From sequence record OQ446694.1: a stretch of DNA of 64,000 nucleotides. One strand, written 5' to 3'. How positions within the stretch are numbered: the stretch's first letter is position 1; the number at the start of each line of letters is the position of its first letter. The position numbers and the translations under genes were made by a program. The notes under the pieces were generated by a model, which saw nothing but the letters and a program-made list of their open reading frames with translations, did not search any database and was not told the DNA's origin. Source of the stretch: Escherichia phage Killian. Below, piece by piece: positions 4,006 through 49,062 of the stretch.

Positions 4006-4029
4006 CTATAAACTCATAAGGAAACCGCT

Positions 4030-32890: not shown

Positions 32891-32902
32891 TATTTATAAA
32901 TA
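32891..32902. promoter_or_regulatory. overlapping divergent late promoters for genes 26 and 51
   Basis: TATTTATAAATA: TATAAATA on + (32895-32902) and on - (32891-32898). Confidence 0.65.
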
Positions 32903-32919
32903 GAATAAAAGGAGCATCT

Positions 32920-33672
32920 ATGGCAAACATTATTCGTTGTAAATTACCAGATGGTGTTCATCGTTTTAAACCATTTACGGTAGAAGATTATCGAGATTTT
33001 TTGTTAGTTCGAAACGATATAGAACATCGGTCACCACAAGAACAAAAAGAAATAATTGCTGATTTAATTGCCGATTATTTTGGAGACTATCCGAAGACTT
33101 GGCAACCATTTATATTTTTGCAGGTATTTGTAGGGTCAATAGGTAAAACTAAAGTACCGGTCACATTTGCATGTCCAAAATGCAAAAAAGAAAAGACAGT
33201 TCCATTTGAAATATATCAAAAAGAATTAAAGGAACCTGTTTTTGATGTAGCTAATGTTAAAATTAAATTAAAGTTTCCTTCTGAGTTTTATGAAAATAAA
33301 GCAAAGATGATTACTGAAAATATTCATTCCGTTCAAGTAGATGAAATGTGGTATGATTGGAAGGAAATTAGCGAATCGAGTCAAATAGAACTTGTTGATG
33401 CCATCGAGATAGAAACATTAGAAAAAATTCTCGATGCAATGAATCCTATTAATTTAACATTGCATATGTCGTGTTGTAATAAGTATGTAAAAAAATACAC
33501 TGATATAGTAGATGTGTTTAAGCTATTAGTTAATCCAGATGAGATATTTACTTTTTATCAAATTAATCACACACTTGTAAAAAGTAATTATAGCTTAAAT
33601 TCAATAATGAAAATGATTCCTGCTGAGCGCGGATTCGTATTAAAACTGATTGAGAAGGATAAACAACAATGA
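32920..33672 (+). CDS. 51: baseplate hub assembly catalyst gp51
   Basis: 250 aa (T4 gp51 ~249 aa). Confidence 0.9.
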
Positions 33673-34844
33673 GTATGTTGCAACGCCCCGGATATCCAAA
33701 TCTCAGCGTTAAATTATTTGAGAGTTATGACGCTTGGAGTAATAATAGATTTGTTGAATTAGCTGCTACTATTACCACATTAACTATGCGGGATTCTCTT
33801 TATGGTCGAAATGAAGGAATGCTGCAGTTTTATGATTCTAAAAATATCCATACAAAAATGGATGGAAATGAAATAATTCAGATTTCTGTAGCTAATGCAA
33901 ACGATATTAATAATGTTAAAACACGAATTTATGGATGTAAGCACTTTTCCGTATCGGTAGATTCAAAGGGTGATAACATCATTGCTATTGAATTGGGAAC
34001 TATTCATTCTATAGAAAATCTTAAATTTGGCAGACCGTTTTTCTCTGATGCAGGTGAATCTATAAAGGAAATGCTTGGTGTCATTTATCAGGATCGCACG
34101 TTATTAACTCCAGCAATAAATGCCATAAATGCCTATGTTCCTGATATTCCATGGACTAGCACATTTGAAAACTATTTGTCGTATGTCAGAGAAGTTGCTC
34201 TAGCTGTAGGAAGTGACAAATTTGTATTTGTATGGCAAGACATCATGGGAGTTAACATGATGGACTATGATATGATGATAAATCAAGAACCATATCCAAT
34301 GATTGTCGGTGAGCCATCTTTAATAGGTCAATTCATCCAAGAATTAAAATATCCATTAGCATATGATTTCGTTTGGTTGACTAAATCGAATCCTCATAAA
34401 CGCGACCCAATGAAAAATGCTACTATTTATGCTCATTCATTTTTAGATTCTTCATTGCCAATGATTACTACAGGAAAGGGCGAAAACTCTATTGTAGTGT
34501 CAAGGTCAGGTGCTTATTCTGAAATGACTTATAGGAATGGCTATGAAGAAGCTATTCGTCTTCAAACTATGGCACAATACGATGGCTATGCTAAATGTTC
34601 TACTGTCGGTAATTTTAACTTGACTCCTGGCGTTAAAATTATTTTTAATGATAGTAAAAACCAATTTAAAACAGAATTTTACGTTGATGAAGTTATCCAT
34701 GAATTATCCAATAATAATTCAGTAACTCATCTATATATGTTCACTAATGCAACGAAACTGGAAACAATAGACCCAGTTAAGGTTAAAAATGAATTTAAAT
34801 CTGATACTACCACTGAAGAAAGTAGTTCTTCCAATAAGCAATAA
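33669..34844 (+). CDS. 27: baseplate hub protein gp27
   Basis: 391 aa as in T4. Confidence 0.93.
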
Positions 34845-35322
34845 AGAAGTTTCTATTCCTAAAATGGGTCTTAAACATTATAACATTTTAAAAGATGTTA
34901 AAGGTCCTGATGAAAATTTAAAACTTCTTATTGATTCTATTTGTCCGAATTTATCACCGGCAGAAGTTGATTTCGTTTCTATTCATTTATTGGAATTTAA
35001 TGGAAAGATTAAATCTCGTAAAGAAATAGATGGTTATACTTATGACATTAATGATGTTTATGTATGCCAAAGATTAGAATTTCAATACCAAGGAAATACA
35101 TTTTATTTTAGACCTCCTGGAAAATTTGAGCAATTTTTGACAGTAAGCGATATGTTATCTAAATGCTTGCTTAAGGTCAATGATGAAGTTAAAGAAATTA
35201 ATTTTCTTGAGATGCCAGCATTTGTATTAAAATGGGCAAATGATATTTCTACAACTTTAGCAATTCCTGGCCCTAATGGTCCAATAACTGGAATTGGCAA
35301 TATTATTGGATTATTTGAATGA
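34789..35322 (+). CDS. 28: baseplate hub distal protein gp28
   Basis: 177 aa; ATG start overlapping the 3' end of gene 27. Confidence 0.88.
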
Positions 35323-37091
35323 AAAAGCCACAAGAAATGCAAACGATGCGTAGAAAAGTTATTTCAGATAATAAACCAGTTCAGGAAGCGGCTAAATCCG
35401 CTTCTAACACTTTATCTGGGCTTAATGACATTTCTACAAAATTGGATGATGCTCAAGCTGCTTCTGAATTAATAGCTCAAACCGTTGAAGAAAAATCGAA
35501 TGAAATAATTGGAGCAATTGACAATGTAGAAAGCGCAGTGAGTGATACTACTGCTGGTTCTGAGTTAATTGCTGAAACTGTAGAAATTGGCAACAATATT
35601 AATAAAGAAATCGGTGAATCACTCGGAAGTAAATTAGATAAATTAACGAGTTTACTAGAACAAAAAATTCAAACAGCTGGAATTCAACAGACAGGAACCA
35701 GCTTAGCTGTAGTCGAAAGTGCTATTCCCGTTAAAGTTGTCGAGGATGATACAGCTGAATTTGTTGGTCCATTATTACCAGCTCCTGAAGCAGTTAATAA
35801 TGATCCTGACGCTGATTTTTTCCCTGCCCCTCAACCAGTTGAACCTAAGCGAGAGTCACCGGAAGAAAAACAGAAAAAAGAAGCATTTAATTTAAAATTA
35901 TCTCAAGCTTTAGATAAATTAACAAAGACTGTTGATTTTGGATTTAAAAAATCCATTTCAATTACTGATAAAATATCAAGCATGCTATTTAAGTATACTG
36001 TCAGTGCTGCTATTGAAGCTGCTAAAATGGTTGCATTAATAATGGCTGTTGTTATTGGAATAGACCTACTGATGGTTCATTTTAAATATTGGTCAGATAA
36101 ATTTTCAAAAGCCTGGGATTTGTTTAGCACTGATTTTAAAACTTTTTCAAGCGAAACCGGAACTTGGGGTCCTTTATTACAGAGCATCTTTGAATCTATT
36201 GATGAAATTAAAAAGTTCTGGGAAGCGGGAGATTGGGGCGGTTTGACGGTAGCTATTGTAGAAGGGCTTGGAAAGGTTCTTTATAATTTAGGAGAACTTA
36301 TTCAGCTTGGAATGGCTAAATTATCAGCAGCAATTCTTCGAGTTATTCCTGGTATGAAAGATACTGCTGACGAAGTAGAAGGAAGAGCACTAGAAAATTT
36401 CCAAAATTCTACTGGAGCATCTCTCAATAAAGAAGACCAGGAAAAAGTTGCAAATTATCAAGATAAACGAATGAACGGAGACCTTGGTCCGATAGCAAAA
36501 GGATTAGATAAAATTGCTAATTGGAAAACTCGTGCATCTAACTGGATTCGTGGCGTTGATAATAAAGAAGCACTAACTACCGATGAAGAACGCGCAGCAG
36601 AAGAAGAAAAATTAAAGCAACTTTCACCTGAAGAAAGAAAAAATGCTTTAATGAAGGCTAATGAAGCGCGCGCCGCGATGATTCGCTTTGAAAAATATGC
36701 TGATTCGGCTGATATGAGTAAAGACTCAACAGTTAAATCAGTTGAAGCTGCCTATGAAGACCTTAAAAAACGGATGGATGACCCGGATTTAAATAATTCA
36801 CCGGCAGTTAAAAAAGAACTTGCTGCTAGATTTTCTAAAATTGATGCTACTTATCAAGAGCTCAAGAAAAATCAGCCTAATGCCAAACCTGAAACTTCTG
36901 CTAAATCGCCAGAAGCAAAACAAGTCCAGGTAATAGAAAAGAACAAAGCACAGCAAGCTCCTGTTCAACAAGCATCTCCTTCAATCAATAATACTAATAA
37001 TGTTATTAAGAAAAATACTGTCGTTCATAATATGACACCCGTAACGAGCACAACTGCTCCTGGTGTATTTGGCGCGACTGGAGTTAATTAA
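35319..37091 (+). CDS. 29: tail tape measure / baseplate hub protein gp29
   Basis: 590 aa as in T4. Confidence 0.92.
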   Translation: MKKPQEMQTMRRKVISDNKPVQEAAKSASNTLSGLNDISTKLDDAQAASELIAQTVEEKSNEIIGAIDNVESAVSDTTAGSELIAETVEIGNNINKEIGESLGSKLDKLTSLLEQKIQTAGIQQTGTSLAVVESAIPVKVVEDDTAEFVGPLLPAPEAVNNDPDADFFPAPQPVEPKRESPEEKQKKEAFNLKLSQALDKLTKTVDFGFKKSISITDKISSMLFKYTVSAAIEAAKMVALIMAVVIGIDLLMVHFKYWSDKFSKAWDLFSTDFKTFSSETGTWGPLLQSIFESIDEIKKFWEAGDWGGLTVAIVEGLGKVLYNLGELIQLGMAKLSAAILRVIPGMKDTADEVEGRALENFQNSTGASLNKEDQEKVANYQDKRMNGDLGPIAKGLDKIANWKTRASNWIRGVDNKEALTTDEERAAEEEKLKQLSPEERKNALMKANEARAAMIRFEKYADSADMSKDSTVKSVEAAYEDLKKRMDDPDLNNSPAVKKELAARFSKIDATYQELKKNQPNAKPETSAKSPEAKQVQVIEKNKAQQAPVQQASPSINNTNNVIKKNTVVHNMTPVTSTTAPGVFGATGVN

Positions 37092-37099
37092 GGAATAAT

Positions 37100-38194
37100 A
37101 TGGCAATTGTTAAAGAAATAACTGCTGATTTAATTAAAAAGTCCGGTGAGAAAATTTCAGCCGGACAGAGTACTAAATCAGAAGTAGGAACTAAAACATA
37201 CACAGCCCAGTTTCCAACTGGGCGTGCTAGTGGTAATGACACTACAGGGGACTTCCAGGTAACAGATCTATATAAGAATGGATTATTATTTACTGCATAC
37301 AATATGTCATCTAGGGATTCTGGAAGTCTTAGATCGATGAGATCTAACTACTCTTCTTCATCTTCGAGTATTTTAAGTACAGCTAGAAACACTATTAGTA
37401 GTACAGTATCAAAACTATCAAATGGATTAATATCAAACAATAATTCAGGAACAATAAGTAAAGCTCCTGTCGCAAACATTCTTTTACCGAGATCTAAATC
37501 TGATGTTGATACATCATCACATAGATTTAATGATGTTCAAGAAAGTCTTATCAGCAGAGGCGGAGGTACTGCTACTGGTGTGTTAAGTAATATTGCTTCA
37601 ACTGCAGTATTTGGGGCACTGGAAAGTATAACACAAGGTATAATGGCTGATAATAATGAACAGATTTATACGACAGCCAGAAGTATGTATGGCGGTGCTG
37701 AGAATAGAACTAAAGTGTTTACATGGGATTTGACGCCACGTTCAACAGAAGATTTGATGGCTATTATTAATATCTATCAATATTTTAACTATTTTTCTTA
37801 TGGTGAAACGGGCAAATCTCAATATGCTGCTGAAATAAAGGGGTATTTAGATGATTGGTATCGTTCTACGTTAATTGAACCTTTATCTCCGGAAGACGCA
37901 GCTAAAAATAAAACACTATTTGAGAAAATGACATCGAGTTTAACTAACGTTCTAGTAGTTTCAAACCCGACAATTTGGATGGTGAAAAACTTTGGTGCAA
38001 CATCTAAGTTTGATGGAAAAACGGAAATATTTGGCCCATGCCAAATACAAAGCATCAGATTTGATAAAACACCTAATGGTAACTTTAACGGATTAGCTAT
38101 TGCTCCAAACCTCCCTAGTACATTTACTCTCGAGATTACTATGAGAGAAATTATCACGTTAAACCGTGCTTCTTTATATGCGGGGACTTTTTAA
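37100..38194 (+). CDS. 48: baseplate tail tube cap gp48
   Basis: 364 aa as in T4. Confidence 0.92.
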   Translation: MAIVKEITADLIKKSGEKISAGQSTKSEVGTKTYTAQFPTGRASGNDTTGDFQVTDLYKNGLLFTAYNMSSRDSGSLRSMRSNYSSSSSSILSTARNTISSTVSKLSNGLISNNNSGTISKAPVANILLPRSKSDVDTSSHRFNDVQESLISRGGGTATGVLSNIASTAVFGALESITQGIMADNNEQIYTTARSMYGGAENRTKVFTWDLTPRSTEDLMAIINIYQYFNYFSYGETGKSQYAAEIKGYLDDWYRSTLIEPLSPEDAAKNKTLFEKMTSSLTNVLVVSNPTIWMVKNFGATSKFDGKTEIFGPCQIQSIRFDKTPNGNFNGLAIAPNLPSTFTLEITMREIITLNRASLYAGTF

Positions 38195-39159
38195 TGTATT
38201 CTTTAGAGGAATTTAATAATCAAGCAATAAACGCAGATTTTCAACGTAATAATATGTTTAGCTGCGTTTTTGCGACAACTCCATCAACTAAAAGCTCTTC
38301 GTTGATAAGTTCAATTAGCAACTTTTCTTATAATAATTTGGGTCTAAATTCAGACTGGTTAGGATTGTCTCAAGGCGATATTAATCAGGGAATTACCACG
38401 CTAATTACTGCTGGCACACAAAAACTGATAAGAAAATCAGGGGTTAGTAAATATCTTATTGGTGCCATGAGTCAACGTACAGTTCAAAGTTTATTGGGCT
38501 CATTTACAGTTGGTACATATTTAATTGACTTCTTTAACATGGCATATAACTCGTCTGGATTGATGATATATTCTGTAAAAATGCCAGAGAATAGATTATC
38601 CTATGAAACTGACTGGAACTATAACTCTCCTAATATTCGTATAACTGGGAGAGAATTAGACCCTTTGGTTATTTCATTTAGAATGGATTCAGAAGCTTGT
38701 AACTATCGTGCAATGCAAGACTGGGTTAACGCTGTTCAAGACCCAGTAACTGGACTGCGTGCTTTGCCACAAGATGTCGAGGCAGATATTCAGGTTAATC
38801 TTCATGCTCGTAATGGATTACCTCATACTGCAGTGATGTTCACCGGATGCATTCCAGTGTCAGTGAGCGCTCCTGAGTTATCATATGATGGAGATAACCA
38901 AATAACTACATTTGATGTTACTTTTGCGTATAGAGTCATGCAGGCTGGAGCAGTTGATAGACAAGCTGCCCTTGAATGGCTTGAATCTGCTGCTATAAAC
39001 GGTATTCAAAGCGTTCTCGGAAATAGTGGAGGTGTCACTGGATTATCTAATTCGCTTTCACGACTTAGTAGATTAGGGGGAACTGCTGGAAGCATTTCAA
39101 ACATTAATACTATGACGGGAATTATCAACTCGCAAAGTAAAATATTAGGAGCAATATAA
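38194..39159 (+). CDS. 54: baseplate tail tube initiator gp54
   Basis: 321 aa (T4 gp54 ~320 aa). Confidence 0.92.
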   Translation: MYSLEEFNNQAINADFQRNNMFSCVFATTPSTKSSSLISSISNFSYNNLGLNSDWLGLSQGDINQGITTLITAGTQKLIRKSGVSKYLIGAMSQRTVQSLLGSFTVGTYLIDFFNMAYNSSGLMIYSVKMPENRLSYETDWNYNSPNIRITGRELDPLVISFRMDSEACNYRAMQDWVNAVQDPVTGLRALPQDVEADIQVNLHARNGLPHTAVMFTGCIPVSVSAPELSYDGDNQITTFDVTFAYRVMQAGAVDRQAALEWLESAAINGIQSVLGNSGGVTGLSNSLSRLSRLGGTAGSISNINTMTGIINSQSKILGAI

Positions 39160-39163
39160 CAAT

Positions 39164-39193
39164 GGGGACCTTTCGGTCCCCATGTTTTTATTT
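39164..39193 (+). terminator. rho-independent terminator after gene 54
   Basis: ggggacc-tttc-ggtcccc then T-rich tract. Confidence 0.75.
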
Positions 39194-39478
39194 ACGGAAT
39201 GAAATAAAAGCAGCAACTGAAGCAACTAAACTGTCTTCAATATAAACTTCAATTTTTACCGGAGCTTCTGATTCAAATTTACCTGTTACTACACCCTGGA
39301 AAATGCTTTCAGTCTGTTCTGGCTTTGAAAAATTTTCAGAAGGAAAAATTCCGAACTTTTTATCTGTTCCAAAAATTTTGATAAATTCATCATAAACTGC
39401 TTCATTAAAAGCGTTATCAGCAGGAATAACGCCTTCAACTACAAGTTCTTGACCTAAAAAGCGTAAAGAAGATTTCAT
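39188..39478 (-). CDS. hypothetical protein downstream of the alt genes (T4 alt.-x-like)
   Basis: 96-aa ORF with GAGG RBS, directly downstream of an early-type promoter. Confidence 0.65.
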   Translation of the reverse strand: MKSSLRFLGQELVVEGVIPADNAFNEAVYDEFIKIFGTDKKFGIFPSENFSKPEQTESIFQGVVTGKFESEAPVKIEVYIEDSLVASVAAFISFRK

Positions 39479-39509
39479 TTTGTGTTCCTCATGTTATGTC
39501 AGTAAGATT

Positions 39510-39539
39510 ATTATAACACAGCACGAGGGACTTGTAAAC
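39510..39539 (-). promoter_or_regulatory. T4 early-type promoter (GTTTAC -35, TATAAT -10)
   Basis: on - strand GTTTAC, 18 nt, TATAAT; second copy of this cassette at 55028-55057. Confidence 0.6.
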
Positions 39540-41596
39540 TACATCTTGAACTTTTTAGACATTCCGTTGATGTTAACCAAAGAAGCCAAGATTTGAGAAA
39601 CTTCGTTTTCCTCTTCTTTTGATTCTTCTACAAGGAATTGATTAAATCCAGCCATTGGACGAACTTCACCAGTTTCCATCAGATGATCGCCATCATATAC
39701 CGATTCTTCTAATTGTTCAGAAGGAGGAACGATTGTACCTTCGATTAAATACTTGTTATAAGCAGTTTCTTTCATCATGTACGTGCTCACTTTATTAATC
39801 TTCAGCAAAATTCCACGTGGTAAAATAACTTCAGCTTCTGACGGAAATCCTGATAAATGACCCGGAACGATAACTTTGATTCGCTCAGCTCCTTTTATTA
39901 CCATACCTACGCTAGTTTCAGCATCTTCATTCGCATAAGCAGAGTGACTGCCCATATGCATCAAATCTTCTGCGTCAACAGAACCTTCTCCTTCACCAGA
40001 AAATACTGCACTGGAATCATCTAGAGCCATATAGTTTTTACCATACTCACCGAAGATATTTGGTTTAAGCGATGTGGATACGAAGTTCTTAAAATAGAAC
40101 ATTTTATTTTCAATATTATGACGTAAAGTTTTAAAGGTAACTTCTTGGCCACGGTAAAGCGTAGTTCCTGGAGGAAGAACTGATCCTTTGGCAAAAGCAG
40201 AATCCATCGTCTCGATGTGTTTAATAGCTCGTTCCATATATTCTTCACGAGTAGAATCCGGTTTACCTAAAAGGAACGAGTTCATTTCAACATATGAATC
40301 CGCGCAATAATCTTCAATTACATCAGACTCAGCCTGAGTTAATCCTTTTGGGGGTACTTCAGTACTTGCATATTCATACGCTTGAGAAGCAGACTCATTA
40401 ATCAATTTATAAATGCCATTCATGACAAATTGAACAATAGCTACCTTTTCGTCTGGCGTGGCTTTAGAACCTTTAACTAAATCATTGATAATTTTCTTAA
40501 TAACATCAAAGCTATTAGAAATATTAATGTCAGCGAGATCGCTCAAAATTTTATCGGTTTTATAATCAAAGAATTCTTTATTCTTTAAATATTCTTGAGA
40601 ACCTTGATATGTTATATCGCTCTGCAGTCTGATAGACGGATCACGTAAACGTGCATGGGCCAATGCAATATGATTTCGGAAGCTTTCTAGTTCATAATCG
40701 TTAGATTTAAAACGAGAAGCACTTCTCATACCACCGATAGCTCCTTTGCTGAAGTTTGAACCAATCTGAATAACGCCAGAGTTCATTGGTCCTTCTGCTT
40801 TATATACCGGAACTTTAGATTCAAACTCTTGATATTTCTTGGCAGCGAAGCTATCACCCTGTAGCGAAGCATCGACAGTAGAATATTGAGCTTGTGCTGC
40901 TAATCGACGACTAATTTTAGTTTTCTGAATAACAGCTTGATCCGTGCGCTTATCATTTTCTAAAGCAATAGAAGCAGCAACAGCAACAGCTTTAGGAACA
41001 GCATTACCTGTTTTAACATCTACATAAACATCACCAACCTTTGATTCAACTTTTGTGAATAACTCAGTTGAAATAGGAGGTACACCTGGAATGTCTTCTA
41101 AATTGGCATTTTTACGGTAAACCATAATATATGCATACTTTTTATCATAGTCCCAGATTTCCTTTAAAAGAACATATCGACCTGCTCCTTTAGTACGTAC
41201 TAAACGGTCAGCAATAACTTGCATTTGACGAGCAGCGCCATTTGTTTTACTTTTTAGTACGCGGAATAGGCATGCGTCAATTTTATACTGTTTCATTGTT
41301 TGAAGAGCAGTATCAAAAACCGCATTAATGACACCAATTGGATTTCCACCCAAGTTTTTAAGTTTAACTAATGATAGTTTCTCATTGACACCTATCATTA
41401 CGATATGCATCATTTTATCGCCTGGCTTAACGTTTTTATTTGTATCACCACCGGAGGTGTATGTACAAAATCTAAATCCAGGAAGCACGCTTTCTTCACC
41501 GGCTTGAATAGCAAAAATTTGAGGTATTTTATGCTTAGGATTTAAGTTAACAACCGGCGCCGAAGCGCCGTCAAATAATTCTGTAATAAGTTCCAT
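39539..41596 (-). CDS. Alt-family ADP-ribosyltransferase, copy 1
   Basis: 685 aa; R-S-ExE ART motifs (YRG, FVSTSL, SEAEVILPRG); paralog of the adjacent ORF. Confidence 0.85.
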   Translation of the reverse strand: MELITELFDGASAPVVNLNPKHKIPQIFAIQAGEESVLPGFRFCTYTSGGDTNKNVKPGDKMMHIVMIGVNEKLSLVKLKNLGGNPIGVINAVFDTALQTMKQYKIDACLFRVLKSKTNGAARQMQVIADRLVRTKGAGRYVLLKEIWDYDKKYAYIMVYRKNANLEDIPGVPPISTELFTKVESKVGDVYVDVKTGNAVPKAVAVAASIALENDKRTDQAVIQKTKISRRLAAQAQYSTVDASLQGDSFAAKKYQEFESKVPVYKAEGPMNSGVIQIGSNFSKGAIGGMRSASRFKSNDYELESFRNHIALAHARLRDPSIRLQSDITYQGSQEYLKNKEFFDYKTDKILSDLADINISNSFDVIKKIINDLVKGSKATPDEKVAIVQFVMNGIYKLINESASQAYEYASTEVPPKGLTQAESDVIEDYCADSYVEMNSFLLGKPDSTREEYMERAIKHIETMDSAFAKGSVLPPGTTLYRGQEVTFKTLRHNIENKMFYFKNFVSTSLKPNIFGEYGKNYMALDDSSAVFSGEGEGSVDAEDLMHMGSHSAYANEDAETSVGMVIKGAERIKVIVPGHLSGFPSEAEVILPRGILLKINKVSTYMMKETAYNKYLIEGTIVPPSEQLEESVYDGDHLMETGEVRPMAGFNQFLVEESKEEENEVSQILASLVNINGMSKKFKM

Positions 41597-41599
41597 GAT

Positions 41600-43696
41600 T
41601 TATCCTTGAATGAACTTGTAAGGCATGTTTGCAATATCTATGCAAGATGCAATAATTCCAAGAGATGATTCTACTTTTTGTTTAACATTTGATGAAACAA
41701 ATGATGCAAAGTCAACTCTGTCTTCTATTTCAATATCACCTGCCATTGCAACTACTTCACCAGTTTCCATTAGACGGTCACCGTCATAAATTACTGATTC
41801 AGTGAGTTCTTCCGTAGTCATAACTTCAGCTTGAATGAGTTTTGTATTATTAGATGTTGTTCCGTCATTATTAGAAGCATCAGTTATTTTATTAACTTTG
41901 ACCATCAATCCGCGTGGTAGAATAACTTCAGCTTCTGTTGCTATTCCGAGGCTTCCTGGATATACAACATTAACTTTATGAGCTCCATCAATTGCCCATC
42001 CTATTTGAACTTTAACGTATTCGGGATTTTCTTTATACGCTCTTATTTCGTTTGAATTAATAGTTATTCCTTCTTCATTTTTATCAACTGTCAATTCATT
42101 ACGAGCTTCTGGTTCTAAAAGACCAATACCAGCATGTGTAATTCCAAAACGTCCAAAAATGATAGGAGTTAAAGAAGTAGATACAAAATTTCTGAAATAG
42201 AACACTTTATTTTTAACTAGTGCTTCGTATATAGGAGCAGTCATGCTTTGAGCACGATAAACTGTAATGCCTTCTGGTATACGGTCACCATTTTCAAAGG
42301 CTGAATCTAAATTATTTATCGCAGATTCAATTTCTTTTTCACTCATTACCTCATATCGTTCTGGATTGTAGCGACCTAAAAGAAGATTATTGATGTCAGT
42401 ATATCCTGAACCACAATACTCTCTAATGCCGCGCTTTTGTGATGGAGTATATTTAGAACCATCACGAGCAATAGTAATATCAATCATTGGACCTGCACCA
42501 ATTCCAGAAAAACTATAAATCATTCTTTTGAGGAATTTAGTTTTTGCTGCGTTCCAGGAATTTTTAGTTATTTCTTCCCAGACTTCATCTGGCTGTCCTT
42601 TACGGGTTTTATTATGTTTATCAAGCCAATTATCTTTATATTCTTCAAATAATTGATTAACAGCTGCTGCGTATTTCTCTAAACATTTTATTGAAGTAGT
42701 TGGTTCATTTTTAATCGCATTAAGAATTACATCTTTAATTTTTTCAGAAACTTCATTAACCTCACTTTTTGAAAAGAATTTATAGTCATAATGAAGTTCA
42801 TCTGCAGTTCCTTCAGCAATAATTTTTGCTGCCTTAGTTTTAGAAGCTAATGAATTAATTCCAAGCTTCATTTCTTCCGCTTCGGGAATTAAAGGAGCGG
42901 TAGCAGGTTTATTGAAATTAGCTGCGGTAGATTCATACTTCTGGAATAATTCACTTTCAAATCTAGAAGATTCTAATGACTGACTTTGCGCAATTGCTCT
43001 ACGGGAAATTTTAACTTTAACGATTACAGCTTGGTCAGAACGTTTATCATTTTCTTGTGCAATAGATGCTGCAATTGCCTCATTTTTAGTTACTTGAGCT
43101 CCAGTATCTTTATTGATATAAACATCACCGACTTTCGATTCAACTTTAGTAAAGAGCTCGGTACTAATTTCTGGAACTCCTGGAATGTCTTCTAATGATA
43201 CATTTTTGCGATGTATAAGAATATATGCGTACTTTTTATCGTAATCCCAGAGTTCCTTAAGAAGGACGTATCTGCCACCTGAACGACTGCGGATAAGTCT
43301 ATCAGCAATAAGTTGAATTTGTCGAGCTTGACCAGCAGTTTTAGACTTAAGAATACGGAGCATGCAGGCATCAATTTTATACTGACGCATCGTTTGCATT
43401 GCAACTGTAAAAACTGAATTGATATAATTAATTGGGCTTGGACCGAGACCTTTTAATTTAGCAATTGAACCTTTAGCAGTTAATGTAAAAGGAACAATAT
43501 GCATCATTTTATCGCCCATCTTTAAATCGCGATTAGTATCACCTCCAGATGTATAGGTACATAAACGAAAGCCTGGTTGTTCAATTGCGTCATCAACGTG
43601 AACTGAAAAAATTTGCGGTATTTTCTTCTTTGGATTTAAGTTTGTAATCGGAAGAGTAGTATCTTCGTCAAATAATTCTGTAATGAGTTCCATCAT
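41600..43696 (-). CDS. alt: Alt-family ADP-ribosyltransferase, copy 2
   Basis: 698 aa; same N-terminus MELITELFD and ART motifs; late promoter immediately upstream. Confidence 0.8.
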   Translation of the reverse strand: MMELITELFDEDTTLPITNLNPKKKIPQIFSVHVDDAIEQPGFRLCTYTSGGDTNRDLKMGDKMMHIVPFTLTAKGSIAKLKGLGPSPINYINSVFTVAMQTMRQYKIDACMLRILKSKTAGQARQIQLIADRLIRSRSGGRYVLLKELWDYDKKYAYILIHRKNVSLEDIPGVPEISTELFTKVESKVGDVYINKDTGAQVTKNEAIAASIAQENDKRSDQAVIVKVKISRRAIAQSQSLESSRFESELFQKYESTAANFNKPATAPLIPEAEEMKLGINSLASKTKAAKIIAEGTADELHYDYKFFSKSEVNEVSEKIKDVILNAIKNEPTTSIKCLEKYAAAVNQLFEEYKDNWLDKHNKTRKGQPDEVWEEITKNSWNAAKTKFLKRMIYSFSGIGAGPMIDITIARDGSKYTPSQKRGIREYCGSGYTDINNLLLGRYNPERYEVMSEKEIESAINNLDSAFENGDRIPEGITVYRAQSMTAPIYEALVKNKVFYFRNFVSTSLTPIIFGRFGITHAGIGLLEPEARNELTVDKNEEGITINSNEIRAYKENPEYVKVQIGWAIDGAHKVNVVYPGSLGIATEAEVILPRGLMVKVNKITDASNNDGTTSNNTKLIQAEVMTTEELTESVIYDGDRLMETGEVVAMAGDIEIEDRVDFASFVSSNVKQKVESSLGIIASCIDIANMPYKFIQG

Positions 43697-43716
43697 ATCC
43701 TCTCTAGTGTTTATTC

Positions 43717-43724
43717 TATTTATA
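43717..43724 (-). promoter_or_regulatory. T4 late promoter for the alt genes
   Basis: TATAAATA on - strand ~20 nt upstream of the alt ATG, followed by GAGAGGA RBS. Confidence 0.6.
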
Positions 43725-43730
43725 AAATTA

Positions 43731-43746
43731 AAGGCCCGAAGGCCTT
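43731..43746 (-). terminator. hairpin between the 62-aa ORF and alt
   Basis: aggcc-cgaa-ggcct tetraloop hairpin. Confidence 0.45.
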
Positions 43747-43934
43747 TAATAATCTATTGGTAAGAGAGTACGATATATTTCAAACTTTGGGCCTTTTTCA
43801 TAGGCATCAAATGTTTCTGTGAATTTATTATAAGCATATGCATCTATAAATTCAATCATAATTTGTGATACAGAAGTAGAAACATCTCCACCTTCTTTTT
43901 GAGCCACGACAATTGTTTCTAAGTAAGCTTTCAT
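43746..43934 (-). CDS. hypothetical small protein
   Basis: 62-aa ORF; start overlaps ligase stop. Confidence 0.55.
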   Translation of the reverse strand: MKAYLETIVVAQKEGGDVSTSVSQIMIEFIDAYAYNKFTETFDAYEKGPKFEIYRTLLPIDY

Positions 43935-45391
43935 AGACCAGTTACCTCATGAAAATCACCAAATACATCCTCGAATGTATTAGCTTTAGTTTTATCTTCA
44001 CGCAAACGAATCGCAATCGGAAGAAATAATTTAACGTAATCAGTGCGGCCATCAGATTTTAACCAACCATTACATTCGCACTCTAGAATTTTTCCAATAT
44101 AATAATTTTGGTTTTCCATAATGCGAGTACGGTCAAGTTCATGCGATTTTACACCGGCTTTATCTTTTAAGCCTGAACCAGCATTTACTTTAATTTTTCC
44201 ACATTCTGATTCAAGAATAAATCCACCCGCTTTAGTAGGGTCTTTACGGTGAGGATAAATTCCTACAATTTTTAAATCAACATCAATTACTTCTTTAAAT
44301 TTATAGAGATTTTTTGAACGAGCATTTTCCCATAATCCATCGATATTTTTGAGAATAATACCTTCAAGACCTTGGTCAATATACTTTTTATAAATTACCT
44401 TAGCTTCATCTAGGTTATTTACTATCTGGTTTTCAATTAAAATTACTTTATCATATCCTGATGTCATTTGTTCTAGTTTAGAAAAACGTACATCATATTT
44501 TAAACGAAATGCTGGAAGACCGTATATTTCTACCAACGGGACATAATCCCAGACCTGAAACTTCATGCATTTGGCTTCTTTTTCTGAAATAGTTCCCTTT
44601 AAAGATTTATTGGCGATTCCATTAGAAGCAGTACGCGATTCAGCTACTTCGGAAAACTCTTTAGCTTTACTGATTTCAGGAGCATCAAAAAGAAAATCTA
44701 GGCCTTCTGGCTCCTTTTCAACTTGCTCATGGTATACCAATTCGCCATCAATTAACACGCCTTCTGGATGAATCTGGCGAGCTTCAGCAGTCATTTTGAT
44801 TAACTCTTCCTTAAGAAGATCTAATCCTAGATATTCATTACCAGCTCGTGATAAAAGACGAACATCATCTAATTCATCGCCTCGGACTTCAGCAAAACAC
44901 CGAGCTCCATCTGCTTTTAACTGTGCAAAAGCTGGAAATTTGATATTCTTACTAATGCCTTTTTCATCATAAGAACTTGCCAGCATTTGAGGTTGTTCAG
45001 GAATTAAACCTGGCCAAACTTTATTTGCGATAGATACTGAAGCACCGCATTCAAGATCTCGCATCATAACTCGACGCAAAACTTCAACATCATCCTTTTT
45101 ACCATCAGTGATATATCCAGTTAATTCCTCAATTGCAGCATTTCCAGTCAATTTCCGAGTAGCTAACGTGAATTCAATGAAGTCAAGCATATCGGTAATA
45201 GTCAGCATTCCAAAACTCTGGGTAGCAATACCAGGTTTAGGCCATTTCTTGATATAATACTGTAACCCACGAGAATAAGTCAGACGATATACTCGTTTAA
45301 GCAATTCATTATCTTTATTCTTTTCAAGAATTGCTTGCTTCTGCTTAGTTGATCCAATAGATGCTATTTCATTCAGAATTTTAAGAATCAT
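43931..45391 (-). CDS. 30: ATP-dependent DNA ligase
   Basis: 486 aa; near-identical to recalled T4 DNA ligase (MILKILNEIASIGSTKQKQAIL...; KADG adenylation lysine motif). Confidence 0.97.
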   Translation of the reverse strand: MILKILNEIASIGSTKQKQAILEKNKDNELLKRVYRLTYSRGLQYYIKKWPKPGIATQSFGMLTITDMLDFIEFTLATRKLTGNAAIEELTGYITDGKKDDVEVLRRVMMRDLECGASVSIANKVWPGLIPEQPQMLASSYDEKGISKNIKFPAFAQLKADGARCFAEVRGDELDDVRLLSRAGNEYLGLDLLKEELIKMTAEARQIHPEGVLIDGELVYHEQVEKEPEGLDFLFDAPEISKAKEFSEVAESRTASNGIANKSLKGTISEKEAKCMKFQVWDYVPLVEIYGLPAFRLKYDVRFSKLEQMTSGYDKVILIENQIVNNLDEAKVIYKKYIDQGLEGIILKNIDGLWENARSKNLYKFKEVIDVDLKIVGIYPHRKDPTKAGGFILESECGKIKVNAGSGLKDKAGVKSHELDRTRIMENQNYYIGKILECECNGWLKSDGRTDYVKLFLPIAIRLREDKTKANTFEDVFGDFHEVTGL

Positions 45392-45657
45392 TGCTCATCC
45401 TTCAAGGTTTGGTTTACAGCTCTATTATAAATCAATTCATCATTAAGCTCAGGCAAAGACCTATGATATGTAGTTCTAACTTTATTTCCTTGCATCCAGT
45501 GCTTAACGTAAATGAAACCTTGCTCTACACATTTTTTAAAAATTCGTTCGTCTTTTTGAGCTCGGAATTTTGGATTACATCTAAAAAATTGATTTACGTG
45601 ACCGTAATCACGTGTAGTATTACCTTCATTTTCATAAATAGTGTGAACGACAAACAT
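45388..45657 (-). CDS. hypothetical protein (T4 30.1-like)
   Basis: 89-aa ORF in 30.1 position. Confidence 0.6.
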   Translation of the reverse strand: MFVVHTIYENEGNTTRDYGHVNQFFRCNPKFRAQKDERIFKKCVEQGFIYVKHWMQGNKVRTTYHRSLPELNDELIYNRAVNQTLKDEQ

Positions 45658-46496
45658 TAGAATGCTCCTTGGAAAATATTATCACCGCTAGTAGGTCTAT
45701 TATACAAATACTCTATGCCACCAGGTTTAATATAGTTCCATGTCTGAAATGGATGTGTCTGATATGGATGATATAGATGATTATAAGGATTAAATCCAGG
45801 CGTTCTCCAGGTAGTGTTCCAAGGAAAAGAATCGTTTTTAACCATCTTCTCAATTAAATCTTTTACAGCTTTTTCACTATCAAAACTTTCTTTATTTTCC
45901 TTCGGCGAAAAAAGCTTATTTTCTACATCATTCCATGTATAAACTCGCTGAGCAGTTTTTGGAATATTGTCACGCTCTCCTCGAGCCATCCAATAAACAG
46001 GAACATTTAATATTTCACTCGCATGATCGCAGTGATGAGCGAGATCGTCAATATAACAAATTACGTTATATTTCTCTTTTGCCTTTTTAAACAACTCTTC
46101 TTTTGAAGAATCATGACCACACATCATTACTTCTGAGAAGGCACCAGGAAAAAGAGCATTCAAATTAAATTGACGATTCAACAGAGCGTCAATAGAATCA
46201 CCCAATGCTGTGACAGCTACAAAATTATAATCTTCTTTTAATTTGTTAATTACACACAGTGCATCTTTATATGGAGACAAGTAACGAATAAAATCTGATC
46301 GATTATATTTTTCAATTAGCTTGACACCGAGTTCTTCATCACAATTAAAGAGTTTACCTGGAGAAATAAATTTCTCATCTTGGATCATTTTTAAAATATG
46401 TTCTAACGGAAGATTATATTTCTGAGCAAAATAAGGAAGACCTGATTGCCAGCTTAAACATACTCCATCAATATCAGTTAAAATAGTAGGCTTCAT
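45657..46496 (-). CDS. HAD-superfamily hydrolase-like protein (T4 30.2-like)
   Basis: 279 aa; N-terminal ILTDIDGV resembles HAD motif I (DxDG). Confidence 0.65.
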   Translation of the reverse strand: MKPTILTDIDGVCLSWQSGLPYFAQKYNLPLEHILKMIQDEKFISPGKLFNCDEELGVKLIEKYNRSDFIRYLSPYKDALCVINKLKEDYNFVAVTALGDSIDALLNRQFNLNALFPGAFSEVMMCGHDSSKEELFKKAKEKYNVICYIDDLAHHCDHASEILNVPVYWMARGERDNIPKTAQRVYTWNDVENKLFSPKENKESFDSEKAVKDLIEKMVKNDSFPWNTTWRTPGFNPYNHLYHPYQTHPFQTWNYIKPGGIEYLYNRPTSGDNIFQGAF

Positions 46497-46957
46497 AGAG
46501 AGTCTCTTAATAGGTTTAACACATCAATAAATTCAGCTTCGGTTAGTATTGTATCATCTTTTGTTAGACCACTAGCCATGCTGTGCTTCAAAACTTTTCC
46601 TTTCGAGGCTTGTAATGCATCACGAAAGCCCCTGTTTTGGAACGCTGCTTCAAAATATGCATTTGTGTATAATTCTTTCCACGCTGGAGAGTATCTTGAA
46701 AACTGAACTCCAAGCCAGAAGAGGGTCCCACGGTCCTGAGCTCTAGCATAAGCTCGTCCAGCTTGTTGGGCGGCAAGCCCGGATAACCCAAATATACGAT
46801 GTTGCTGTTCAACATTTTTCACCTTGCATCCTTGGAGGAATCCTTCGAGACCTCCAAATTGGATACCATCCATAACAAAAGGCCATTGGGCGAAATTACT
46901 TAATGCACATGATGGCCATCTAAAATTGCTTCTAATCTCTAACTCAGACATTTTCAA
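46493..46957 (-). CDS. NADAR/YbiA-family protein (T4 30.3-like)
   Basis: 154 aa; LSNFAQWPF..DG..F...EGFLQGCK resembles the NADAR (DUF1768) core. Confidence 0.65.
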   Translation of the reverse strand: MKMSELEIRSNFRWPSCALSNFAQWPFVMDGIQFGGLEGFLQGCKVKNVEQQHRIFGLSGLAAQQAGRAYARAQDRGTLFWLGVQFSRYSPAWKELYTNAYFEAAFQNRGFRDALQASKGKVLKHSMASGLTKDDTILTEAEFIDVLNLLRDSL

Positions 46958-47159
46958 TACTTATAATTTCAACATCAGCCCAATGACCGTAACTTGGTAA
47001 ACGGTCTTCAATAGATAATCCGCCATCATATTTAAGCATTTTAATTGTCATAATATATGGCTCTAAATGGTCTTCAGTGAGCGGAGAGACATCAGTCACA
47101 CGATAAGTAACTTCGACCATTTCCGTGCCCAGTAATTTCTTGATTAATTTCTTAAACAT
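46944..47159 (-). CDS. hypothetical protein (T4 30.4-like)
   Basis: 71-aa ORF. Confidence 0.55.
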   Translation of the reverse strand: MFKKLIKKLLGTEMVEVTYRVTDVSPLTEDHLEPYIMTIKMLKYDGGLSIEDRLPSYGHWADVEIISIENV

Positions 47160-47163
47160 TTTA

Positions 47164-47451
47164 TTAGAACCTCATCTGAAAACCGTGCGATTTAACACTA
47201 CCGCCGCCAATATCAGAAATATTAATTTCACGCGCAATTGAAGGGTCAATGTCAATTTCACGATTGAGTTTAGTGATAGCTAAAGTATCGCGGCCATTTA
47301 CAGTACGGAACTCTAAAGGGCAGACTACATTAACATAGTTTTTAATCGATTCACTGGTAGGTTGCAAATGAGCAGGAAGGTCTTTAGGCGCCTTAGAGAA
47401 AACCACTTCACAGAAATTTTTGCGGGTATCAAAATAAGTAGTCATAAACAT
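47164..47451 (-). CDS. hypothetical protein (T4 30.5-like)
   Basis: 95-aa ORF with GAGG RBS. Confidence 0.6.
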   Translation of the reverse strand: MFMTTYFDTRKNFCEVVFSKAPKDLPAHLQPTSESIKNYVNVVCPLEFRTVNGRDTLAITKLNREIDIDPSIAREINISDIGGGSVKSHGFQMRF

Positions 47452-47468
47452 AGTATTTTCCTCAGTAA

Positions 47469-47482
47469 GGGGCCGAAGCCCC
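47469..47482. other. GC-rich tetraloop hairpin between 30.6 and 30.5
   Basis: ggggc-cgaa-gcccc; T-tract follows on the + strand although flanking genes are on -. Confidence 0.6.
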
Positions 47483-47492
47483 TCATTTTATT

Positions 47493-47858
47493 TTAAATAT
47501 CAAATTCGTTAAGAACTACATCAAAGATTGCTTCAAGATGCTCAGGTTTAGCTCTGTTACTCAGAATATGACGAATCCAAGTTTTAACCAGAAGCTTGCG
47601 ATTAACACCATTCCAGCAAGGATGAGTCCCTAAATCGCGTTGACGAAAATCATCATCCAAAGCGATTTTGAAGTTGGAACCTTCCATTGTGATTGAAACC
47701 GTGATGCCATTTTCAAATCGCATATAAACGTAGTTAGGAGTCATATACTGTTCAATTTCGCATACTGATCCATTTTGATGTTTCCAAAGGCAAATAGTAT
47801 CAATAGAACCTGCAATACCATTAGAAACATATTTACGTTCAAAGTTGATGTAGTTCAT
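47493..47858 (-). CDS. hypothetical protein (T4 30.6-like)
   Basis: 121-aa ORF. Confidence 0.6.
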   Translation of the reverse strand: MNYINFERKYVSNGIAGSIDTICLWKHQNGSVCEIEQYMTPNYVYMRFENGITVSITMEGSNFKIALDDDFRQRDLGTHPCWNGVNRKLLVKTWIRHILSNRAKPEHLEAIFDVVLNEFDI

Positions 47859-47926
47859 TTTTATTCTCCGAGCTGTTTAATTGCGGTACAGGTATATAAT
47901 ATCATATCCTGTACCAAAGTAAACAA

Positions 47927-48259
47927 TTATTTTACTACTTTCCAGTGCTGCATGTCAAGTTTACCAACTTTTTTCATCTTCTCAATTAAGCGTTCGGCGC
48001 GTTGGCGAGCTGTAACATAATACCATTCACCCAATTCATTTTGTTCAATTTTTCCAACGATTACTGTATTCAATTCATAAATCCAACCAGTAAAGAAATT
48101 ATGAACTTGAATTGTAAAGGTGAAATCTGTTCCCATACCTTCTGTTGTTTCTACTTCAATAATATCACCTTCAACTGCCATTAAGAACCACATAGTTTCA
48201 TCATATTTACCATTGAAGCATTTAGTTTTAACTGCAGCGTTCAGATTAATCGTTTTCAT
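47927..48259 (-). CDS. hypothetical protein (T4 30.7-like)
   Basis: 110-aa ORF. Confidence 0.6.
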   Translation of the reverse strand: MKTINLNAAVKTKCFNGKYDETMWFLMAVEGDIIEVETTEGMGTDFTFTIQVHNFFTGWIYELNTVIVGKIEQNELGEWYYVTARQRAERLIEKMKKVGKLDMQHWKVVK

Positions 48260-48345
48260 TTTATTCTCCTTTGTTTGTGTAAGATAATACTATCACAAAG
48301 GAACCATACTGTAAACAACTTTGTGCAGTCTTTGGAAAATAAAAA

Positions 48346-48363
48346 AGGACTCCCGAAGGAGTC
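48346..48363 (-). terminator. rho-independent terminator (- strand)
   Basis: ggactcc-cgaa-ggagtcc; on - strand followed by TTTTTT. Confidence 0.7.
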
Positions 48364-48369
48364 CTCAAC

Positions 48370-48588
48370 TTATGCTTTCTGCTTACCAAAACGAGAAGCA
48401 TCATCTCGAAGAACCGCACGTGCTCGGCGCATGATCTTCTCAACAGTTTGATTGATACGAGAGTTCGACCCACGCTTGTAACCAGCGCGTTTAGAATCAC
48501 CAACTTTCTTTTCAACTGCTTTCTTTGCTTTAGCTTGTTTTGCCATTATAAATTCTCTTTTAAATGAAAATGCAGGACTTATTGGCAT
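48370..48588 (-). CDS. small basic protein (T4 30.8/30.9-like)
   Basis: 72-aa Lys/Arg-rich ORF, possibly starting at internal MAKQAKAKK; terminator immediately downstream. Confidence 0.55.
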   Translation of the reverse strand: MPISPAFSFKREFIMAKQAKAKKAVEKKVGDSKRAGYKRGSNSRINQTVEKIMRRARAVLRDDASRFGKQKA

Positions 48589-48666
48589 TGCCTGCGCAAG
48601 CCCTCAAGGGGAACATAGGTTTTTGAATATTTAACGACCAGGATAACCATAAACCCGTCATCATAC

Positions 48667-48915
48667 TTACTTCAGTGTTACCACAAAATGACGAACTGCT
48701 TTTCGTGCAGCAGAAGCCAGTGGCTTAGCATATTTAAGTTCATCTTTTTCCTGAAGCTCAGCAGCTAATGCAGTTTGAGCAGGATTTAGATGTTTGAAAT
48801 AACGCAGGATTTCAAGAGCTTCGGCTTCAACATCAATAGATGCGCCATAGTTTTCGTGACCATTATTCCATGCGTTTCGTTGCAGTTCAAGAGCGTGTTG
48901 TAATTGTTTAATCAT
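48667..48915 (-). CDS. rIII: rIII lysis inhibition accessory protein
   Basis: 82 aa as in T4 rIII; position next to gene 31. Confidence 0.85.
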   Translation of the reverse strand: MIKQLQHALELQRNAWNNGHENYGASIDVEAEALEILRYFKHLNPAQTALAAELQEKDELKYAKPLASAARKAVRHFVVTLK

Positions 48916-49054
48916 TTAAAAATTCTCGTTAGAGATTAAAACTCGGTAGTCACGTTCTTCTGAATTTCATCTTCTTTCGACAGATCTCTCAGTTGTAGAC
49001 TACCACATAGAATTGTTCGGTTAACTTATTATTCCGACACCCAATTCATATTAT

Positions 49055-49062
49055 TATTTATA
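49055..49062 (-). promoter_or_regulatory. T4 late promoter upstream of rIII
   Basis: TATAAATA on - strand abutting the gene 31 stop, ~140 nt upstream of rIII. Confidence 0.5.

Follow-up and report, generated by a model that had tools for sequence, protein, structure and literature searches.

A two-gene alt locus in Escherichia phage Killian encodes two divergent Alt-family ADP-ribosyltransferases

Organization of the alt locus

The alt locus of Escherichia phage Killian (OQ446694.1; the window analysed here spans 64,000 nt) consists of two ORFs on the minus strand, denoted copy A (41600..43696, 698 aa) and copy B (39539..41596, 685 aa). The regulatory elements and protein segments described below are located on this strand as well. 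The ORF list and the sequence bear out the adjacency and the 3-nt gap reported in a first-pass annotation of this DNA, the intervening nucleotides being ATC. The order gene 30, alt.1, alt, second alt, alt.-3, gene 54 is common to Killian, T4, T2 and RB14, and the two-gene locus as such is already known and annotated. Database names for the second gene vary, including hypothetical protein, Alt-like, and NAD(+)--arginine ADP-ribosyltransferase. Base composition is uniform across the region, without sign of a foreign insert, and plus-strand ORFs within the alt genes are short (at most 69 aa).

Upstream of copy A, a terminator hairpin AAAGGCC-TTCG-GGCCTTT (43730..43747), read from the sequence and identical in T2 and T4, shares two bases with the alt.1 stop codon, is followed by a T tract, and closes the upstream gene 30/alt.1 unit. 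A simple terminator scan did not return this hairpin, though it is plain in the sequence. The late promoter claimed earlier at about 20 nt upstream of the first ORF was found as a T4-type box TATAAATA (43717..43724) that is conserved in T4 and T2; its distance to the first ATG of copy A is 20 nt. No further copy occurs on the minus strand from window position 32898 to 49055, and none precedes copy B. The motif alone is weak evidence, because similar 8-mers are common in the AT-rich window (17 versus 9.3 expected, with 2 of 100 shuffles reaching 17); it gains weight from lying directly after the terminator hairpin, from being conserved in both T4 and T2, and from the fact that T4 alt is expressed late (PMC9697503).

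Two adjacent ATGs, at 43696 and 43693, could start copy A. The Shine-Dalgarno sequence GAGAGGA (43698..43704) lies 1 nt before the first and 4 nt before the second, a spacing that suits the latter, and the annotated orthologs in T2, T4 and RB14 begin with MELITE. The length of copy A is therefore most likely 697 aa instead of the 698 aa proposed earlier. The Shine-Dalgarno sequence of copy B, AAGGA (41603..41607), falls within the final codons of copy A and is separated from the copy B ATG by 6 nt. Given the 3 nt between the stop of copy A and the start of copy B, translational coupling of the two genes is plausible. No RNA families were found by Rfam in 38500-44500.

Two Alt-family ADP-ribosyltransferases

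Both ORFs encode Alt-family ADP-ribosyltransferases (ARTs) of the R-S-E type (C3/iota/VIP2/Alt clade). The Pfam family PF03496 (ADPrib_exo_Tox, curated cut-off 23.4 bits) matches copy A at 3e-37 (128.2 bits) and copy B at 2.8e-20 (72.9 bits), and PHROG 802 matches both over their full length (copy A: 2e-271, residues 1-696; copy B: 4.9e-255, residues 1-685). All C-terminal ART motifs named in the first-pass annotation are present, namely YRA in copy A, YRG in copy B, and FVSTSL as well as EAEVILPRG in both. By alignment, the catalytic residues of copy A are R480 (YRA, 42251-42259), STS (42173-42181) and EAE (41927-41935); those of copy B are R482 (YRG, 40148-40156), STS (40070-40078) and EAE (39830-39838). 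The columns of the arginine, of STS (both serines) and of ExE are invariant across 20 homologs, including R482, S507, S509, E587 and E589 of copy B, and the ExE motif is E587-A-E589 in both copies. The catalytic glutamate, whose loss from one copy had been considered, is thus present and invariant in either protein. The E-x-E motif, a catalytic glutamate together with an upstream glutamate, is the signature of arginine-specific ARTs.

The relationship extends to bacterial toxins. The Alt arginine and ExE align with the YR of iota toxin and CDTa and the EYE of CDTa, and with the QYE of C3. In Foldseek, an AlphaFold model of full-length copy B, of moderate confidence (pLDDT 72), retrieved Vis, C3, Certhrax, VIP2 and CDTa (E from 4e-7). 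The target TM-scores were 0.54-0.70 for single-domain ARTs and 0.28-0.37 for larger multidomain toxins. For copy A, support for the fold consists of sequence matches to CDTa and iota only. Copy B alone gave no match against the sequences of solved structures; only a family profile reached C3 and the binary toxins. NCBIfam has no model for either copy, and the N-terminal modules and central regions had no match in a local Pfam search even at E = 10; precomputed Pfam assignments of homologs list PF26846 and PF03496. The Alt proteins share the ART fold and the R / STS / (E/Q)xE active site with C3 exoenzyme, iota toxin Ia, CDTa, VIP2, Vis and Certhrax, but are only 14-20% identical to them. In addition, they carry a phage-specific N-terminal module, a helical region and a propeptide that is cleaved off, STS and ExE are separated by a large acidic insert, and delivery relies on phage ejection rather than on a toxin B component.

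Copy A (41600..43693, 697 aa and stop) is the Alt ortholog by position and belongs to the RB51/PP01/T2 allele type. It shares with T4 Alt (gpAlt, NP_049811; PHROG 802) the position, the late promoter, the catalytic motifs and both sites for the prohead protease gp21. Its N-terminal module (aa 1-240, 42974..43693) contains ITE-6 (43676-43684) and is 99% identical to T4 Alt, and the C-terminal tail is 89% identical. Identity is lower in the variable central region (aa 241-414, 42452..42973), with 35% to T4 Alt (~32-35%, alignment-dependent, compared to 13-18% to copy B), and in the ART domain (aa 415-632, 41798..42451), with 62%. The latter ends at the gp21 motif LTE-632 (41798-41806) and is followed by an acidic propeptide (aa 633-697, pI 4.2, 41603..41797) that begins SVIYDGDRLMETG and whose homolog in T4 Alt is a 63-aa propeptide that is cleaved off (PMC5694885). 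Relative to T4 Alt, dS amounts to ~1.2-1.3 in the central/ART segment versus 0.14 in the N-terminal module, and we therefore conclude that this segment has been replaced.

Copy B (39539..41596, 685 aa and stop) exhibits the architecture and all motifs of T4 Alt at 42% identity, yet is a separate paralog. Its N-terminal module (aa 1-238, 40883..41596) contains ITE-6 (41579-41587), and a compact alpha/beta fold is predicted for aa 1-240 (pLDDT 84, pTM 0.82). The all-helical central region (aa 239-414, 40355..40882) is unrelated in sequence to that of copy A; a HMMER search of this region against 1.8 billion representative proteins gave zero matches and also missed the B-type proteins themselves. 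The ART domain (aa 415-631, 39704..40354) ends at a gp21-type motif, LEE-631 (39704-39712), and the acidic C-terminal propeptide (aa 632-685, pI 4.6, 39542..39703), which begins SVYDGDHLMETGE, is disordered in the model.

Overall, copies A and B are 41% identical (BLASTP, E = 1e-158), with dS above 1. Both start with MELITELFD as described before, but the shared N-terminus is a module of ~238 aa with 67.5% identity and not a tag of nine residues. Likewise, the divergence ascribed to the central ~250 residues is found there (18% identity), but is not confined to them, as identity is 39% in the ART domain and 40% in the C-terminal tail. The residue three positions before ExE is F584 in copy B, aromatic as in C3 and iota toxin, compared to isoleucine in copy A and alanine in T4 Alt. 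Because the central domains are unrelated and the ARTT loops differ, different targets of the two enzymes are plausible.

Processing and packaging

T4 Alt is cut by gp21 at ITE-6 and LTE-619, as mapped by mass spectrometry (PMC5694885), and motifs are located at homologous positions in both Killian proteins (ITE-6 and LTE-632 in copy A, ITE-6 and LEE-631 in copy B). The glutamates of these motifs are invariant alignment columns, and the model confidence of copy B falls at residue 629. The synteny with T4 and T2 and the retention of the gp21 motifs in both copies support the earlier reading of late-expressed, head-packaged and injected enzymes. By analogy to T4 Alt, which ADP-ribosylates Arg265 of the RNA polymerase alpha subunit (PMC2988021), we infer that both Killian proteins are packaged, cleaved, injected and enzymatically active, and likewise infer their targets. 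The arrangement resembles that of the IP proteins, which are likewise non-essential, head-packaged, processed by gp21 and injected, and which combine a conserved delivery part with variable cargo at loci that are polymorphic among T-even phages (PMC9026906, PMC12373910). The IP targeting sequence, however, is a 10-residue peptide, whereas Alt carries a folded module of ~238 aa and a second, C-terminal propeptide.

Distribution and selection

The first-pass annotation had left open whether the second copy is a conserved T4 paralog or a lineage-specific duplication. Alignment to T4 Alt and its neighbours shows that T4 retains only a remnant, annotated as alt.-1/alt.-2 (NP_049810, NP_049809; PHROGs 23015 and 15247, matched by copy B at 1e-38 to 1e-40). 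The remnant joins codons 1-116 to codon 680 and is 96% identical to copy B in nucleotides over codons 1-116 and 95% from codon 680 to the stop. It differs from the intact Killian gene by a 1-nt indel causing a frameshift and an internal deletion of ~1.69 kb. Intact copy B is found at an identity of at least 95% in 401 phage records, with T2, RB14 and AR1 among the carriers, and the T4-type deletion in ~91 records, such that copy B is lost in ~18% of the records with the locus. Since T4 holds only the remnant and the intact gene is widespread, copy B does not count as a T4 gene, and it is not a recent duplication specific to one lineage either. Its orthologs in T2 (AYD82791.1, 'alt.-1'), RB14 (ACP30838.1, 'alt.-2') and AR1 (BAI83209.1) all comprise 685 aa; those of T2 and RB14 are 96-100% identical to copy B per module, and the AR1 gene was placed by position, without alignment. 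The number of alt genes varies among relatives, from one hybrid gene in ECML-134 to three in tandem in Dhakavirus AnYang.

Both copies are under strong purifying selection (dN/dS ~0.05). Relative to the T2 and RB14 orthologs, dN/dS is 0.044-0.047 for copy B and 0.06-0.07 for copy A, at a dS of 0.16-0.25, and is lowest in the ART domain (0.02-0.04 in copy B). Both genes are predicted to be functional, and we reject pseudogene status for copy B on the grounds of dN/dS and motif conservation. We know of no reported T4 defect attributed to the loss of copy B. Growth on laboratory hosts thus apparently does not require the gene, which could be partly redundant.

Interpretation

We consider it probable that Killian carries the common two-gene alt locus of a Tequatrovirus, encoding two injected arginine-type ARTs with different target ranges. 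A single late transcript from TATAAATA would give rise to two R-S-ExE mono-ADP-ribosyltransferases, each built from four parts: a ~238-aa N-terminal module, a variable helical region, a C3/iota-like ART domain and an acidic C-terminal propeptide. As with T4 Alt, both proteins would be incorporated into the prohead core, trimmed by gp21 after ITE-6 and after the L-x-E near residue 631, retained in the DNA-filled head and ejected together with the DNA. Using host NAD+, they would then modify arginines of host proteins by ADP-ribosylation, ahead of all phage gene expression. The main target of copy A is expected to be Arg265 of RNA polymerase alpha, in addition to other proteins, and copy B would act as a second, non-redundant warhead with another target range.

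It is unlikely that copy B, though packaged and active, shares its modification sites with Alt (RNA polymerase alpha Arg265 and others) and merely supplies more enzyme. The common family, catalytic motifs and frame of N-terminal module and propeptide would fit such a role, as would the loss from T4 with no known reported defect; the central regions, however, are only 13-18% identical, the ARTT loops differ, and the split between A and B is old (dS above 1), yet the orthologs of each are tightly conserved. A duplicate kept purely for dosage should either have remained similar or be missing from more than ~18% of records. That copy B is not injected at all, and acts either as a head-assembly factor or at a late stage in the cell that produces the phage, for example on host or phage proteins while particles assemble, appears very unlikely. 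Expression from a late promoter is consistent with such a role, and the literature searched contained no proteomic or biochemical report on the protein (virion presence or activity), but copy B retains the Alt N-terminal module as well as ITE-6 and the C-terminal L-x-E at the homologous position. Moreover, the only alt gene of ECML-134 is a natural hybrid of an A-type N-terminus and a B-type body, which implies that the N-terminal modules are interchangeable.

T4 ModB, a related R-S-E ART, performs RNAylation (bioRxiv 10.1101/2021.06.04.446905, PMC10468400), and copy B might by analogy act on something other than protein arginine with plain NAD+, for example by attachment of NAD-capped RNA or modification of nucleic acids. 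The arginine-type E-x-E and the protein-modifying toxins as nearest folds argue against this role, no positive evidence for it was found, and we regard it as highly improbable. That copy B is a duplicate in decay, or a structural protein devoid of catalysis, is scarcely credible: the deleted remnant in T4 and the ~91 records would suit decay, but the ORF is intact in ~400 records, dN/dS is ~0.045 and lower still in the ART domain, and all five catalytic positions are invariant.

Knowledge of injected phage ADP-ribosyltransferases derives almost entirely from T4, which has deleted the second gene, whereas this gene is intact and strongly constrained in about four fifths of the locus-carrying records of the phage collection searched. 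Given this wide retention and constraint, the second enzyme probably enters the cell just as infection begins. The literature searched yielded just two items on the second paralog, a comparative note of 2006 and a genome description of 2026. It contained no report on substrates of the enzyme, and finding such substrates would widen the view of how T-even phages take over the host or counter its defences. The locus does not represent a new type of system; it is of value because it draws attention to a common, little-studied paralog and to modular exchange of effectors.

Going beyond the two-enzyme reading, we tentatively propose that the alt locus may be a recombining array of injected-effector cassettes, with copy B aimed at a target other than RNA polymerase. 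The N-terminal module and the C-terminal propeptide would form a phage-specific delivery frame that is kept matched to its own head, and warheads consisting of central region plus ART domain would be exchanged between phages, even between genera, with copy numbers of 1 to 3 or more arising via unequal crossover. Copy B might then be a dedicated effector, for example against a host defence or toxin protein, that was overlooked because the model phage T4 deleted it. Several observations support this proposal, without proving it. Between copy A and T4 Alt, dS jumps ~10-fold at the module borders. The ART domain is 93% identical between Killian and AnYang, the N-terminal modules only 46%. Further support is provided by the ECML-134 hybrid and the three-gene array of AnYang, and by the N-terminal module fold, which precedes other predicted effector domains in unrelated phages.

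Two tandem genes for intact Alt-type enzymes

The locus consists of two long ORFs on the minus strand within 39539-43724, namely 41600..43696 (698 aa) and 39539..41596 (685 aa). The trinucleotide ATC is all that separates the stop codon of the first ORF from the ATG of the second, confirming the adjacent genes and 3-nt gap reported in the first-pass annotation. The first gene is denoted copy A (41600-43693), the second copy B. The two proteins share 41% identity in a protein comparison (E = 1e-158), with 67.5% in the N-terminal module (N-module), 18% in the central region, 39% in the ADP-ribosyltransferase (ART) domain and 40% in the acidic C-terminal tail. Both start with MELITELFD, and this common N-terminus as well as the YRA/YRG, FVSTSL and EAEVILPRG motifs are present as first described.

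Both copies score far above threshold for the Pfam family ADPrib_exo_Tox. Across 20 aligned homologs, R482, S507, S509, E587 and E589 (copy B numbering) are invariant, so that careful alignment finds the catalytic glutamate, whose absence from one copy would have refuted the first-pass reading, in both copies. The Arg and ExE residues of copy A align with those of CDTa and iota toxin, and in the family profile the ExE motif aligns to the QxE of C3 exoenzyme. At the level of sequence, both copies are shown to be intact R-S-ExE ARTs with the architecture and the processing motifs of Alt.

Operon structure

As in T4, the locus reads DNA ligase (gene 30), alt.1, alt, the second alt, alt.-3 and, on the other strand, gene 54. 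The late promoter TATAAATA that had been proposed about 20 nt upstream of the first ORF is indeed found at 43717-43724 (minus strand), 20 nt before the first ATG of copy A. The 8-mer as such is common in the AT-rich window (17 observed versus 9.3 expected), and the motif gains weight only from its placement here and from being conserved in T4 and T2, alt being expressed late in T4 (PMC9697503). No other TATAAATA occurs on the minus strand between 32898 and 49055, hence there is no separate box ahead of the second gene. The ribosome-binding site of copy B lies inside the last codons of copy A, a bicistronic arrangement behind the late promoter box. In T4, the stretch from the late promoter to the ribosome-binding site of alt contains an additional GAATA repeat.

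Copy A starts with adjacent ATGATG codons (43691-43696, minus strand), as do its counterparts in T4 and T2. Since the spacing of the Shine-Dalgarno sequence GAGAGGA suits the second ATG, and since MELITE... is the annotated start in T4, T2 and RB14, a protein of 697 aa is the likelier product. Immediately before the promoter box lies a hairpin (AAAGGCC-TTCG-GGCCTTT, 43730-43747, minus strand) that shares two bases with the stop codon of alt.1. The latter gene (43746-43934, minus strand) encodes 62 aa matching Pfam PF24647, 'Phage blade protein' (7.5e-29), and shares 4 nt with the end of the DNA ligase gene. Downstream of copy B, alt.-3 (39188-39478, minus strand; Pfam DUF5498, 1.4e-64) has its own strong early-type promoter at 39510-39538 (minus strand; TTTACA, a 17-nt spacer and TATAAT with TG, 11/12 matches) and is therefore placed outside the late alt operon. 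Mutants of T4 Alt.-3 with C-terminal extensions escape the CmdTAC defence system (PMC11618068). Between gene 54 (plus strand) and alt.-3, a GC-rich 9-bp hairpin with T runs on each side (39162-39183, both strands) looks like a bidirectional terminator.

Processing, packaging and predicted structure

In T4 Alt, the prohead protease gp21 cuts after ITE-6 and after LTE-619, as determined by mass spectrometry (PMC5694885; also PMC9026906), thereby taking off 63 C-terminal residues (PMC5694885); GenBank record X15811 carries a note on this cleavage. The homologous motifs are ITE-6 and LTE-632 in copy A, and ITE-6 and LEE-631 in copy B. The glutamates of both motifs are invariant in the family alignment. 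The predicted mature proteins have masses of 70.1 kDa (copy A) and 69.2 kDa (copy B), and the removed tails are acidic. Directly after the C-terminal site, both copies and 20/20 aligned homologs contain the motif Y-D-G-D-x-(L/F)-(M/L)-E-(T/S)-G-E, in which Y, DGD, E and GE are invariant (39665-39703 in copy B and 41759-41797 in copy A, minus strand). The conserved Alt architecture and gp21 motifs provide good indirect evidence that copy B, like Alt, enters the prohead core, is processed and stays in the head. A literature search found no virion proteomics covering copy B. We note that the propeptide motif encloses a second protease-type site, L-M-E.

The AlphaFold model of copy B (mean pLDDT 72) consists of an alpha/beta N-module (residues 12-227), a linker of low confidence (228-240), a helical region (250-411), the ART domain (421-628) and a tail that is mostly of low confidence (629-685). 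Foldseek hits of this model (E from 4e-7) include Vis toxin, C3, Certhrax, VIP2 and CDTa; against the single-domain ARTs, target TM-scores are 0.54-0.70. Structure searches with both copies and the family profile found no solved structure of an Alt protein. Modelled alone, the N-module reaches a pLDDT of 84 and a pTM of 0.82, and comparison of this model with solved structures gave no convincing relative. Among predicted viral structures, Foldseek finds its fold also in large uncharacterised proteins of unrelated myoviruses (9-15% identity), some of which carry names for zeta-toxin, deaminase or ParB/Srx domains. These matches hint that the N-module might be a general delivery module.

Relation to T4, distribution and selection

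A 4.9-kb stretch of the locus matches Escherichia phage vB_EcoM_P8 at 98.2% identity and is covered to at least 80% in 342 phage records, nearly all of them Tequatrovirus, many of which annotate two 'Alt-like RNA polymerase ADP-ribosyltransferase' genes. Copy A is the positional ortholog of T4 Alt, albeit a mosaic one. Identity to T4 Alt is 99% over the N-terminal 240 aa (dS of the N-module 0.14), 35% in the central region (dS 1.30), 62% in the ART domain (dS 1.16) and 89% in the C-terminal tail (dS 0.22); the jump in dS at the module borders implies that the middle of the gene was replaced by recombination. About 305 records, among them RB10, RB51 and PP01, have the copy A allele at an identity of at least 95%. 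T4 represents another allele type, with 55-57% identity over the same stretch.

Copy B shares 42% identity with T4 Alt, and its remnant in T4 consists of the small ORFs alt.-1 and alt.-2. The T4 record annotation traces these to an ancient duplication of the beginning of alt. Their translation, MELITELFDGASAPVV..., is of the B type, and their PHROGs are matched far better by copy B than by copy A. The T4 DNA aligns with codons 1-116 of copy B (one indel) and resumes at codon 680, with about 1.69 kb deleted in between. In phage AR1, copy A is of the T4 type, and the second gene, at the same position, is intact. An intact copy B with at least 95% identity is present in 401 phage records, T2, RB14 and AR1 among them, with almost none between 95% and 50%; the T4-type deletion junction occurs in 91 of 499 records. 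The second copy is thus an old, widely conserved paralog that was lost in the T4 lineage, which settles the point raised in the first-pass annotation as to whether it is a conserved T4 paralog or a lineage-specific duplication. Compared with the T2 and RB14 orthologs (dS 0.16-0.25), dN/dS is 0.044-0.047 for copy B and 0.06-0.07 for copy A, with the tightest constraint in the ART domain. The low values indicate that both genes are functional.

The pair as such is already known as an annotated feature, since the T4 GenBank record notes the duplication, a full-length alt duplicate has been described in phage 44RR (Nolan et al. [quoted passage not shown] The paired genes are no surprise to a specialist. 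A literature search turned up no experiments that address the second paralog. It is worth noting that an enzyme conserved in most relatives of T4, and probably injected, is missing from this model phage.

Putative function of the second copy

About 40 molecules of T4 Alt go into the scaffolding core, are trimmed by gp21 and are ejected with the DNA; the enzyme ADP-ribosylates one of the RNA polymerase alpha subunits at Arg265, as well as various other host proteins, raising the transcriptional output of some early promoters about 2-fold (PMC2988021, PMC9958956). Copies A and B would both follow this route of core entry, trimming and ejection. We infer that copy B differs in its substrate range, given that its central region is unrelated and its ARTT loop different. 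Three residues before ExE, copy B has Phe, copy A Ile and T4 Alt Ala. In structures of C3 and iota toxin, a turn-1 aromatic at the position of this Phe contributes to substrate recognition.

Other, less probable readings have to be weighed against a distinct substrate range of an injected copy B. The two copies could be redundant and serve dosage alone, as their common catalytic residues would allow; the central region and the ARTT loop, in which they differ, argue for separate substrates. The shared late promoter would also suit a late function of copy B without injection, to be set against the gp21 sites and the N-module it has in common with Alt. Copy B might use an unusual donor or acceptor, on the pattern of RNAylation by the related enzyme ModB; its E-x-E motif, the signature of arginine-type enzymes, argues against this. 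A dead or decaying copy B is contradicted by the data in hand.

Plasticity of the alt locus

The alt locus is plastic in both copy number and content. Escherichia phage ECML-134 has a single hybrid alt gene (2508-4568 in its sequence L004) that consists of A sequence to about codon 150 (~nt 450) and B sequence thereafter, and evidently arose by unequal crossover inside the shared N-module. Three proteins from metagenome assemblies (P0004, P0005 and P0007) are similar hybrids with other crossover points. Dhakavirus AnYang harbors three tandem Alt-like genes (1165-7425 in its sequence L005) of 694, 681 and 707 aa, separated by gaps of 3 nt. The first of these shares 93% identity with copy A in the ART domain although the N-modules share only 46%, which indicates cassette exchange. 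The three AnYang N-modules are 66-89% identical to each other, more than to any Tequatrovirus N-module. This pattern fits a delivery part that is kept matched to the phage's own head. Some Aeromonas phages have 3-4 matching places per genome.
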